Source of the DNA: Schmidtea polychroa
Taxonomy: Eukaryota
Direction: 5' to 3'
Length of the DNA: 60,000 nt
NCBI GenBank assembly: GCA_044892525.1
Contig: CM097885.1
Span: forward strand, 20,586,001 to 20,646,000
Shown: positions 46,653-55,287 of the stretch, in pieces
Position numbering within the stretch: position 1 is the first letter of the stretch
Layout of the letters: each line of letters opens with the position of its first letter
The notes under the pieces: model-generated
Seen by the model: the letters and a program-made list of their open reading frames with translations, nothing else
Databases searched by the model: none
What the model was told of the DNA's origin: nothing
Made by a program: the position numbers and the translations under genes

Positions 46653-47135
46653 ATGGAATCAACCGGCTACATTACAAAGAGACTCGAAAAATTCGTAGAT
46701 TTAACACACAATTCGTTACAACGGCTAAATCGCAAAGCGGAACAGTTGGTGAAAATCCAAGACGAGATAAGCTTGAAGCCAAGACCGCAAGCTGAGGAAA
46801 TATGTGTAATGATGAAAATAGCAACACCTAATGCAGAATTGACCACTAAAAGAGTCTATCAAATTCAAAATTTACGATTAGATAATGCCAAATTCAACAT
46901 CAAATGGCAAGAGATAATGATGAAAATGGAAACGATCGAAGAAGAAATTAAAGAAGCAATCGAACATCAAGTTAAAAATTTTAGAAAATGCTTCACATGC
47001 AGAACCAATGAAATACGAGTAATGACGATCCCATGTGGTCATTTATGTTACTGCGAGAATTGCGCAGAGAAAATTAAACGATGCAACGTATGCGATACGA
47101 ACGTTAGAGAAAAAATTGTAATATACCTCCCGTAA
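46653..47135 (+). CDS. Coiled-coil plus C-terminal IAP-type C3HC4 RING protein
   Basis: CFTC..MTIPCGHLCYCENCAEKIKRCNVC..KIVIYLP at the extreme C-terminus; intact, intronless. Confidence 0.85.
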   Translation: MESTGYITKRLEKFVDLTHNSLQRLNRKAEQLVKIQDEISLKPRPQAEEICVMMKIATPNAELTTKRVYQIQNLRLDNAKFNIKWQEIMMKMETIEEEIKEAIEHQVKNFRKCFTCRTNEIRVMTIPCGHLCYCENCAEKIKRCNVCDTNVREKIVIYLP

Positions 47136-48537
47136 GGAGATGTTGTCAAATAAATTTCTTGTGAATGAATATGGAATGAGAAAATTATTAAATCATATTA
47201 AAAAATCCATTATAGCAACCGAAAGGTATAAAACATACGATAAACATAGACATATAAAGGACACAAAATACGTTAAATAAATAGACAAGCAACACAGCAA
47301 TTAGAACAACTAAAATCAAAATTGAATGCAGGACTGATCATAGTCGCATGGACGAGCTGATCGATAAGATCAGTACGATTTTTACTTCCAATTTCCTTTC
47401 CTTCCTGTTTTATTATTTTGGCATAAAGTGATACGACAATGAGGGGATGACAAGTGAATCGTCCTTACGACACTTGCCCGGATGGGGAAATCCTGATCAC
47501 CCTGACGAGAGAATGTAGTAGGATCCATCGCAAATGTTGGGGAGTTTCTGTCGAGTGACTGATCACCACTTGTGGGAAATGAACCAACGCGATTATTATA
47601 TTTTTTTGGCTGGGAGAATGGGGTTGACTAAAAGGGTAAATAAAAATAGAAAAATAAAATAAAAATTGAAAAACGCGCGCTAAATGTTAAAAATTTAATC
47701 CGAGAGCAGCTGCGGATTTGAAGAAACCGTTTTTGGACTTCAAATCAGATGAGAAATAATGATTTTTCCCTAGCGAGTGATGAGGCACCCGAGTACAGCG
47801 GCTAACCACCGGACTGTAGTGTCCAGGAGATTATCAGGCAAGGGACTGATGATGCTGGATCACCCAATACAAAAACCCGGATACCACACCCAGTATTGGG
47901 CGCTTTTTTTTTTGGGTTGCTAGCGGGACTTGATACAAAAACCCGGAAGGGTAGCGAGCGAGAGAGACCCAGTTACCTACACCGAGTATTAAGGAGCCCA
48001 GTGAAACGGTTGTGAGATGCGGGTCAACCGGTAAAGGACTCGTACTCAACAGGCAACCAAGATTGGACCAGTTGTGAGGCGGGAGACCGAGAGTCAACTG
48101 CATATCCAATTTCCTTTTATCTTCACTAGTCGGGAGATCTGGTTCATCACTTTTGAGAATCAAGATCGAGGCGATTAGGCATTTCCATGTTTTTTAAATC
48201 CTGATAGATAGGTTGTTTTTTCTTCGTGATTATTGCTAGCAGGGGTCGGTACAAAACCCGGATGCCCACACCGAGTACCGATAGGCCCAGTGAAACGGCG
48301 ATGAGATTAGAGTTACCGGTATTAGACTCTTTTCAATAGGCGGCCAAGAATTGAGCCAGTTGTGAGGCCTCAGCAGATTAGGAATTTGAGTAGGAGGAGC
48401 CTTAAATTTTTAATTAGTCCGAAAGCCAACTGTCAACTCAATTTAATCGCGGTAGGGACGATAGTAGAAAGCGTCGAGGGGTTGAAGAAACCTCATTTAG
48501 GGCATTTGAAACCGGTCAGGGACCGAAGACCGCAAAT

Positions 48538-53900: not shown

Positions 53901-55287
53901 GGTATACGTATGGTACCCTGAACAATTTGGTGAAATCATCCGGAAATGGAAACAACAAGAGTGGGCCGAAAACTCACCTGAGAAATATCAACTAAAAATA
54001 TTCTTGCCAGATTTTGAACCAATGGAAAAGGAATTCTACACAACAGCCAAGGTCAGGGAAGTTAAAAAGAGAATACCTTATGAACTCCCATTCCACTTAC
54101 AACACGAGGGACGATCATTAGACGACGATATTGAGATTGGTGTGACACCACTCCAAGGAGAAATTGTGAACAGATTAACGGTGAGTAAAATTGCAGGGAG
54201 AGAATTAAGGAGAAGAGAAATGAAGCAAAAATCATCTACACAACAACCGGGAAGTTTGGACACACCAGAAGTTCCAAATGCGGTTAGTGAAGTAACGATC
54301 GAAACAACGGGAGAAGACGAAATACTAGATGAATTACAGGAGATAGTCGAAGCAGGCGAGATTATGAGAGCATCGCAATCGGGAGATCTATTTATCGACG
54401 AAGGTGAACCAACAACTGATGATCTAGATGGATTTGTATGTGCACAAAGACAACCAGTGGAAACGACAGAAGCCGAGACGGATTTAGATAATGTGGGAGG
54501 AAGCGCCAATAAAGATGTAACCACAACCGATGAATGGAGTAACTGGATAGTAGATCCAGGAGCGACCACGTCAAAAGATACAACTTACAATCCGCCAAAA
54601 CGGAAAGAAACCGGAACGGCTATGGATCGACGAACAAGAGGAAGACCAAAAACAGATAAAGCAGAGGTGGAACCAAAATCCAAAATTCAAGCACAAATGG
54701 AACAGGTAAAAACTAAAATGGATAAACTAAGCGCATTAGTAAAACAAGTCAAAGTGAAAACAAACATCCGGGAACAAGGGACGCGATGGATAAACGACTT
54801 ATTAGCTAACATGTTAGCGTTAGCAAATCCAGATGTGAAAAGAGTAATGAGGAAGGATAATATCCCAACCGAAGCTAAACAATTATGGGCGGTATTGAAA
54901 CCGATAATAATGAAAATCATGGATAATAAAATTCGATTAACGTTAAAGGATCCCGTGGAACTCAGATTAATTGTGGAACATCTGTTAACTAGATCAGAAG
55001 ACCAAAATCGATATTTAGTGGGATTAGCGTATTTGGTGTATAACGTCATTGGTCAATATAAAAAACGAATGCCAAAATATAACGCAACTGGTTATGAATT
55101 CACAGTAACAGAAATAATCAAACGATCAATAGAACCATATATACTTGAACAAGGGGGATGGAGAAACTTCATCGAATCAACTGGGAAGAAAGATCAAACG
55201 GAAATGATGCAAGCAAAGTTACGCGATTTGCTAACGGAATTCGAAGGAACAATCAATATGAACGACCCAAGAGCAAGCCGAAAGGGA
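50930..55287 (+). CDS. Accessory polyprotein region: coiled-coil, three ubiquitin-like domains, MATH/TRAF (about 53168-53607), Bcl-2-like (about 54770-55180); frameshift near 53830
   Basis: FTWKIEN..SPPFYSG..YKMKLLIYPNGDGVGKGSYVSAF..GNYD..VPWPFSRKVT; YILEQGGWRNF (BH2); IKIKVKLPNEE..IEVDPD.QVDEL. Confidence 0.8.

Follow-up and report, generated by a model that had tools for sequence, protein, structure and literature searches.

Layered cell-death and ubiquitin-related cargo in a Burro-type giant retroelement of Schmidtea polychroa

A 60,000-nucleotide stretch of the Schmidtea polychroa genome (GenBank assembly GCA_044892525.1, contig CM097885.1, positions 20,586,001 to 20,646,000 of the forward strand; hereafter, the window) contains the 5' part of a young Burro-type giant gypsy long terminal repeat (LTR) element of 36.5 kb, with LTRs of 5.6 kb, that carries RING, TRAF/MATH, ubiquitin-like (Ubl), Bcl-2-fold and IAP parts. 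The explanation that we favor, with some but far from full confidence, is that these parts are separately acquired accessory proteins, maintained by purifying selection, which would damp host cell death and innate signaling during replication of the element. Retrotransposons rarely carry host-signaling genes; Burro elements carry several, as large DNA viruses do, and one of these genes is reported to help planarian regeneration. Cargo of this kind has already been published: MATH, BIR, Bcl-2-like and single Ubl domains, ankyrin repeats and an in-frame env were described in Burro elements, which were considered possible proviruses, and meddling with apoptosis and ubiquitination was proposed (PMC6431247). 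The preliminary description of this DNA, made from the sequence alone, was right to name MATH/BCL-type domains as already noted in Burro. What is added here is evidence of selection on every part, of a non-canonical Bcl-2 fold, and of two abundant sister families that differ in the IAP and the in-frame MATH. Occurring in one genome, these two families provide a natural control on the question of whom the cargo serves, host or element.

The cargo and the adjoining Env region of the window copy, which belongs to family A, are listed below together with the two cargo open reading frames (ORFs) past the window end; families D and B and the protein P0006 are relatives discussed in the following sections.

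46653..47135, +: stand-alone RING ORF, with an N-terminal part of about 105 amino acids and a C-terminal IAP-type RING with an aromatic tail
52004..52240, +: Ubl1, ubiquitin-like domain, weakly supported
52517..52801, +: Ubl2, ubiquitin-like domain
53153..53620, +: in-frame MATH domain of the TRAF type
53989..54204, +: Ubl3, core ubiquitin-like domain, also represented in families D and B and in P0006
54628..54654, +: basic GRP motif, which we take to be AT-hook-like and which D, B and P0006 likewise have directly ahead of their Bcl-2-like domain
54739..55185, +: Bcl-2-fold domain, BH2-like GGW present, BH1 xxGR glycine gone
55270..55350, +: predicted internal Env signal peptide, made up of a basic stretch, a hydrophobic core of 13 residues and small residues
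55351..57150, +: Env fusion glycoprotein in the Gag-to-Pol interval, with a frame change near 55.5 kb and a transmembrane helix near 57030
L001:4538-6001, past the window: full-length intronless TRAF ORF with a RING-like Cys pattern, zf-TRAF and MATH
L001:6142-7320, past the window: BIR-RING IAP ORF with one clear BIR, a degenerate BIR-like stretch (by eye) and a RING

Selection on the cargo and its distribution among families

For family A, omega was estimated with a tree-based codon model from 37-38 rows (the window and 41 loci) or, for TRAF and IAP, from 19 rows (the window and 20 loci); rows covering less than 70-80% of a domain were left out of the selection tests. The values were 0.18 for RING, 0.19 for Ubl1, 0.27 for Ubl2, 0.29 for MATH, 0.12 for Ubl3, 0.15 for Bcl-2, 0.17 for TRAF and 0.23 for IAP, compared with 0.81-1.14 for six non-coding frames. 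Family D (19 rows) gave 0.17 for RING, 0.16 for both Ubl1 and Ubl2, 0.03 for Ubl3 and 0.12 for Bcl-2, with three control frames at 0.59-1.04. The acidic Gag linker has an omega of 0.29 in A and 0.22 in D; Ubl3, Bcl-2, RING and TRAF are more constrained than this linker, and Ubl3 is the most constrained part of the cargo. In pairwise comparisons, which used two sets of copies, one chosen by RING score and the other by Bcl-2 score, with agreeing results, the 95% intervals of pN/pS for the six in-window domains were below 0.4, and shifted frames gave at least 1.08. All parts of the cargo are under purifying selection.

The domains might instead be neutral passengers of recent host-gene capture, as the broken polyprotein of this copy could suggest, but this view is refuted by the selection tests and has, in our estimate, hardly any chance of being correct: omega is 0.03-0.29 in two families against 0.59-1.14 for non-coding frames, the closest sampled host TRAF is only 45% identical, and the MATH and Bcl-2 trees have long branches. 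Profiles and folds turned out as the preliminary description had predicted rather than misfolded, and omega far below that of non-coding sequence rather than neutral.

The cargo differs among families. Family D is a sister family, with 89% reverse transcriptase (RT) identity to family A and 29-49% identity in the cargo, and possesses a leader RING orthologue (31% identity), three Ubls, Bcl-2 and TRAF, with neither an in-frame MATH nor an IAP. The MATH-less and IAP-less junctions are each whole in 40 of 40 scored family D copies, and first-look candidates at the D junctions number 322 and 355, compared with 313 for family A, all of these being candidates and not copy numbers. Among 20 sampled family A copies, TRAF and IAP are each present in 19, and open in 15 (TRAF) and 16 (IAP). 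Family B has one Ubl and a Bcl-2 fold, and no RING, MATH, TRAF or IAP was seen in the copies examined, two of which were followed downstream and one upstream. The cargo is layered, with an old core that consists of Ubl, Bcl-2, signal and Env, with RING and TRAF in both A and D, and with MATH and IAP in A only among the families compared.

An example of family D is found at L131-L132-L115-L133 (G000:C2, 35.89-35.92 Mb). The Env transmembrane stretch is letter-identical between A and D over 35 residues, compared with 59% identity for Env overall, which hints at recombination or strong constraint.

This distribution bears on the coherent counter-defence module that the preliminary description had proposed, in which the parts would make up a single co-adapted complex imitating the cIAP-TRAF-Bcl-2 pathway. 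Such a complex would fit the adjacency of the TRAF and IAP ORFs, each near-universal in sampled family A copies, and the selection on every part, but we consider it improbable, given that family D lacks MATH and IAP in all scored copies at similar candidate counts, that RING, MATH, TRAF and IAP were unseen in the family B copies, and that the Dugesia tigrina element has its MATH in another ORF (PMC6431247). Because family D looks as abundant without MATH and IAP, the cargo is not one obligatory module. Mimicry of the pathway by the parts originally listed also fared poorly, none of these being canonical: the BH1 glycine, the BIR, the TRAF coiled coil and zinc fingers, and the Ubl di-glycine are all missing.

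The same two families bear on the possibility that the cargo is kept mainly for host benefit, as a mutualism in stem cells, and not for spread of the element. In favor of this is the work of Lee et al. 2026 (Dev Cell), through its title and a second-hand account, according to which the Burro1 BIR-RING gene (B-IAP) protects stem cells from caspase-mediated apoptosis (quoted in PMC13465017). The IAP ORF at L001:6142-7320 resembles B-IAP in its BIR and RING content; the setting differs in that the IAP-less family D keeps the RING leader, TRAF, three Ubls and Bcl-2. We give host benefit as the main reason little credence: omega reflects differences among multiplying element lineages, in which Gag, integrase and cargo are all constrained, and the IAP-less family multiplied about as well. 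It would nevertheless be compatible with the action of accessory proteins on host signaling that we favor. As for the role in keeping host cells such as stem cells alive that the preliminary description put forward, such a role is reported for the Burro1 IAP, but that BIR-RING gene lies outside the region to which the role had been assigned and is none of the domains it was assigned to.

Identity of the cargo domains

The leader RING ORF encodes 160 amino acids and matches Pfam zf-C3HC4_3 (E 3.9e-11). The top nine of its 15 PDB matches are cIAP2, cIAP1 and XIAP entries; the RINGs of CGRRF1, MYLIP, MEX3C and MGRN1 match as well, more weakly. The eight zinc ligands do not vary in any of the 37 aligned copies. 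Pfam detects only the RING in this protein, and because there is no BIR, the product is an IAP-type RING protein and not an IAP. The possibility that the ORF is part of the LTR is ruled out by its position 3' of the 5' LTR (40355-45944); a stand-alone RING ORF in the leader, as initially called, is confirmed by this position, the Pfam RING and the IAP-type PDB matches.

The in-frame MATH matches Pfam MATH_2 (E 8.4e-29) and, best of all, TRAF3 (E 5.4e-29), in agreement with the original assignment of a TRAF-type MATH in the polyprotein. It is preceded by an acidic stretch, and neither a zinc finger (Pfam) nor a coiled coil (by eye) adjoins it. Its identity to host-like TRAFs from 19 sampled loci is 27-45%, and none of those sampled is closer than 45%. 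In a MATH tree of 24 rows, of which 21, chosen among the 150 best-scoring matches, represent these host loci, the branches are long, the topology is unresolved and no donor was identified; a single origin of the three element MATHs is neither rejected nor shown (approximately unbiased test, p-AU 0.44). The host-like TRAFs (L110-L114; C2 about 105-124 Mb and 1-5 Mb) comprise intronless full-length genes and a large cluster of genes whose MATH exons are shorter, and the tree places the element MATHs on the side of the former. Taken over the whole domain, MATH shows no sign of diversifying selection (34 copies have 20 shared variable positions out of 156, and omega is 0.29).

In the separate TRAF ORF, Pfam identifies zf-TRAF (2.1e-7) and MATH (1.3e-27), and the RING is recognizable by its Cys pattern only. 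This protein shares 22-30% identity with host-like TRAFs over long stretches and had no match in the protein database at E<=1e-20. The IAP ORF contains a Pfam BIR (2.6e-15) and RING (3.2e-12), with PDB matches to NAIP, cIAP1 and XIAP. In a genome search with Pfam BIR, nearly all matches were element-sized frames, so that there was no host IAP for comparison.

None of the Ubl domains alone reaches the Pfam cut-off. Ubl2 has an Atlas ubiquitin match at 0.92, and a profile of Ubl3 with its family B orthologues matches ISG15 (E 0.005). A profile pooled from nine element Ubls, ubiquitin itself being left out, matches 298 PDB sequences at E<=0.01, and all 60 listed among these are of the ubiquitin fold. 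In a leave-one-out test, where each domain and its family D orthologue were both removed from the profile, the family A Ubl1 scored above 499 of 500 shuffles, and Ubl2 and Ubl3 above all 500. Ubl1 is the weakest of the three, with no ubiquitin-fold PDB match alone and an HHalign probability below 2%. A further point against the ubiquitin-like assignment is that, when host ubiquitin was compared with two-sequence profiles made for each domain separately, scores as high came from 33, 299 and 14 of 500 shuffles. Overall, the three Ubl-like domains of the preliminary description hold up in profiles and shuffles, Ubl1 weakly, and the regions were correctly recognized, with two of the starts (52003 and 52530) one base off frame. 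Because there is no conserved C-terminal di-glycine, the Ubls are integral domains and not conjugatable tags. A Gly-Gly following Ubl2 is kept in family A and absent from the family D orthologue and the other seven rows; its absence in D rules it out as a deubiquitinase cut site. Elsewhere in the genome (G000), there are many dispersed ubiquitin-like matches (for example, C1:15640798, C1:9665835 and C3:118950834), often in tandem pairs about 228 nt apart, which sit in open frames of 600-1,400 amino acids and possibly represent another mobile family with ubiquitin fusions.

The Bcl-2-like domain alone gives no Pfam match, a PDB match only at E=2, no Atlas match and none among the longer proteins of the protein database; a search of representative proteins yielded one match, the relative P0006, and P0006 as a protein-database query returned only itself. 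A Pfam Bcl-2 search of the genome led to family B, where a Bcl-2-like domain occupies the same slot. Combined with its element orthologues, the domain matches Bcl-xL (E 7e-4), and HHalign gives 93.8% against seven aligned Bcl-2 sequences, six host-like and one Polinton-borne. All listed Foldseek matches of its AlphaFold2 (AF2) model (pLDDT 58.5) are Mcl-1 (E from 1.2e-3, TM 0.41-0.57), and many of the best structural matches in a viral library are viral Bcl-2 proteins, all with E>0.01. The helical domain with a BH2-like end was thus rightly called Bcl-2-like, on the strength of HHalign, the Bcl-xL profile match and the AF2 model. In the Bcl-2 tree, five element rows are separated from nine others (host-like and Polinton-borne) by a long branch with support 99/97. 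The BH2-like P-x5-GGW is invariant in five of five element rows and kept across 17-36% identity. Each of the four lineages (A, D, B and P0006) has lost the glycine of the BH1 xxGR, and three have lost the arginine as well; the site reads DQNR in every A row (38 of 38), DDEH in every D row (19 of 19), NRDK in B and EDTK in P0006. The domain models as a helical-bundle Bcl-2 fold that is non-canonical for BH1.

Following this domain in A, D and B is a 13-residue hydrophobic core with the shape of a signal peptide (Kyte-Doolittle value, KD, 2.47), which could also be a short tail anchor of the Bcl-2 piece; P0006 ends without such a core. Two other sets of Bcl-2 genes were observed. At L012 and L013 (G000:C4, 89.9-90.8 Mb), one region holds seven nearly identical matches to a Bcl-2 gene that is host-like and has NWGR intact. 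In repeated Polinton/Maverick-like elements (L009:4789-9671, L010:3578-9900, L011:4853-9651 and L022:464-5002), a stand-alone Bcl-2 gene lies close to one that is TBP-like, together with an A32-type ATPase, DNA polymerase B and integrase (Pfam TBP E 8.7e-14 in L009, Bcl-2 E 1.3e-7 in L010); the Polinton-borne Bcl-2 does not group with the Burro domain.

Possible action on the host and relation to published elements

Viral accessory proteins are known to act on host cell death and innate signaling in the way that we propose for this cargo. We infer the following course of events. The element protease would act on repeated I/V-x-M-M/L sites in the polyprotein and free two pieces, an acidic one with Ubl1, Ubl2 and MATH (about 51.6-53.7 kb) and one with Ubl3 and Bcl-2 (about 53.7-55.35 kb), with signal peptidase generating the end of the second at the Env signal. 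The leader RING would recruit an E2 and serve as a ubiquitin ligase, host proteins that bind TRAFs would be engaged by TRAF and by the lone MATH, the latter as a decoy, and the Bcl-2 fold without the BH1 glycine would more likely use a non-canonical surface than serve as a standard BH3 sink, or else may have become structural. The 3' IAP would block caspases, as is reported for Burro1. Host TRAFs are stated to be needed for cell survival in planarians (PMC7586133), where an expansion of TRAFs is also reported (PMC6109357).

Several observations weigh against this explanation. Selection means that the element needs a protein and says nothing on what the protein does; MATH (0.29) and the family A Ubl2 (0.27) are no more constrained than the Gag linker (0.29); and the copies were taken from top-scoring lists, hence are young, and analyzed with a codon model that assumes no recombination among them. 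The cleavage motif was defined post hoc, and its excess in A (6 sites compared with 1.75 expected, p 0.008) is accompanied by a count in D (4 compared with 1.8) within the shuffle range. The AF2 model of the Bcl-2 domain is of low confidence, and a first model gave a TM of 0.21; a stable tail anchor is doubtful, the hydrophobic core being 13 residues long and weak over 19 (1.35). Furthermore, derepressed BURRO1 is reported in differentiated cells, and BURRO1 RNA interference brought no improvement of the smedwi-2 phenotype (PMC8532177).

The old Ubl-Bcl-2-signal core might instead be a structural or processing part, such as a membrane tether or a spacer from Gag to the Env signal, with only IAP, TRAF and RING acting on the host. 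We regard this as unlikely, if worth serious attention. It accords with the fixed position of the core directly ahead of Env in A, D and B, with the losses at BH1, with a single old origin of the element Bcl-2 domains and with a constraint on Ubl3 like that on capsid, and is at odds with the preservation of the BH2-like GGW at such low identity and with the match of the model to the Bcl-2 fold. The GR of BH1 is described as strongly conserved, a change of the glycine abolishing pro-survival activity, whereas divergent viral Bcl-2 proteins such as F1L are active without NWGR, though F1L retains a glycine (PMC9609553 and PMC2836074).

More speculative, and in our opinion doubtful, is the proposal that the ancient common cargo of Burro elements is the Ubl-Bcl-2-fold unit and not the IAP. 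This unit would be cut from Gag and left on the endoplasmic reticulum (ER) by the Env signal peptide, would have lost BH1 before the four lineages split, and would block innate or ER-stress signaling via a non-BH3 surface, with the RING-only leader protein degrading host IAP-pathway targets and elements spreading as well without the "mutualistic" IAP.

Among published systems, the closest are Burro1 / GYPSM1 and Burro2-4 (Jurka 2007 and Grohme et al. 2018, as described in PMC6431247), which are longer than 30 kb and have long LTRs and polyproteins of about 4,800-5,100 amino acids (about 4,800 here). The element described here shares with these Gag, MATH, Ubl, Bcl-2-like, in-frame Env, the protease-RT-RNase H-integrase series, ankyrin and BIR (PMC6431247), an assignment made by comparing its layout with published descriptions of Burro. 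Unlike Burro as described in that paper, it has three Ubls, compared with one between MATH and Bcl-2, a RING-only leader ORF, a full-length TRAF ORF and the BH1 loss. It also resembles the GAG-ENV-POL errantiviruses of Platyhelminthes with HSV/gB-type Env, in which Env lies between gag and pol on a Ty3/gypsy backbone and most of which are reported to be multi-copy (PMC13524379); a word search of the main text of that paper for Bcl, ubiquitin, TRAF and RING, and of seven supplements for Bcl and TRAF, returned no mention. In its predicted fold, the Bcl-2-like domain resembles viral Bcl-2 proteins (BHRF1, ASFV A179L-type, adenovirus E1B-19K and poxvirus F1L); unlike these, it sits inside a Gag-Env polyprotein, comes after a Ubl, lacks the BH1 glycine and has a short hydrophobic tail. 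Likewise, compared with cellular cIAP1/2, XIAP and TRAF2/3, the element RING and BIR match IAPs, and the MATH matches TRAF3 best, whereas the leader protein is RING-only, the in-frame MATH stands alone, and the element IAP and TRAF are separate mobile ORFs. In the literature searched, we found no RING-only leader gene, BH1 loss or IAP-less sister family as a control; Grohme 2018 and Lee 2026 may show these parts in their figures or supplements.

Anatomy of the element and neighboring sequence

The element extends from position 40355 to 16.9 kb beyond the window end. Its two LTRs differ by 9 mismatches and 2 gap openings, and the target duplication is the 4-bp ATAT. Apart from the cargo and Env, the following features were mapped.

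40355..45944, +: 5' LTR (TG...CA), 99.68% identical to the 3' LTR, holding two small ORFs
45953..45970, +: probable primer-binding site directly inside the LTR, from its sequence, presumably tRNA-Pro-like
48535..48894, +: tandem repeats of 132 bp within the leader
49632..50920, +: Gag capsid and CCHC knuckles, with a frame change near 50.8 kb in this copy
57700..60000, +: protease, reverse transcriptase and RNase H, interrupted in this copy by two in-frame stops
L002:1312-6910, past the window end: 3' LTR, pairing with the 5' LTR at 40355..45944

Past the window, the element continues with integrase and ankyrin repeats, and then with the TRAF ORF, the IAP ORF, and coiled-coil and membrane ORFs. 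Env, which matches Pfam Monjiviricetes_fusion (E 7.5e-63), shares its frame with the protease, and a viral lifestyle, as suggested at the outset, accords with this env-carrying element. The domains had also been placed within one open polyprotein, which does not apply to this copy, with its shifts of frame near 50.8, 53.8-54.0 and 55.5 kb and its stops at 58419-58421 and 59466-59468; in other copies, a single open frame of about 4,790 amino acids is found, with at least 4,770 in 48 of the best-scoring 150 rows. The Pfam scan of P0005 revealed no dUTPase-like domain between protease and RT, no dedicated profile search having been made. Tracing of a diverged LTR led to an internal region at one of 20 loci. 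Contigs from four runs presumed to be RNA span much of 46500-55500, a coverage that is no evidence of transcription, strand or splicing.

Of the small LTR ORFs (44450-44833 and 45100-45609), one has an AT-hook-like motif at its end; an LTR fragment of 77% identity, located about 3 kb beyond the element, has both still open, and a related LTR ORF is present in family D (by eye). Between L001:7400 and L002:957, 3' of the IAP, there are two coiled-coil-like ORFs, the first with a pN/pS of 0.14, and an ORF with a signal-like start and a membrane-like segment; family D has counterparts of these ORFs. Upstream of the element, at 32931-36631 of the window, 89-nt inverted repeats 3.5 kb apart and 99% complementary mark a probable DNA transposon. 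Directly past the 3' end of the element, at L003:1371-4609, lie exons of an ATPase gene, which we take to be of the ABCF type.

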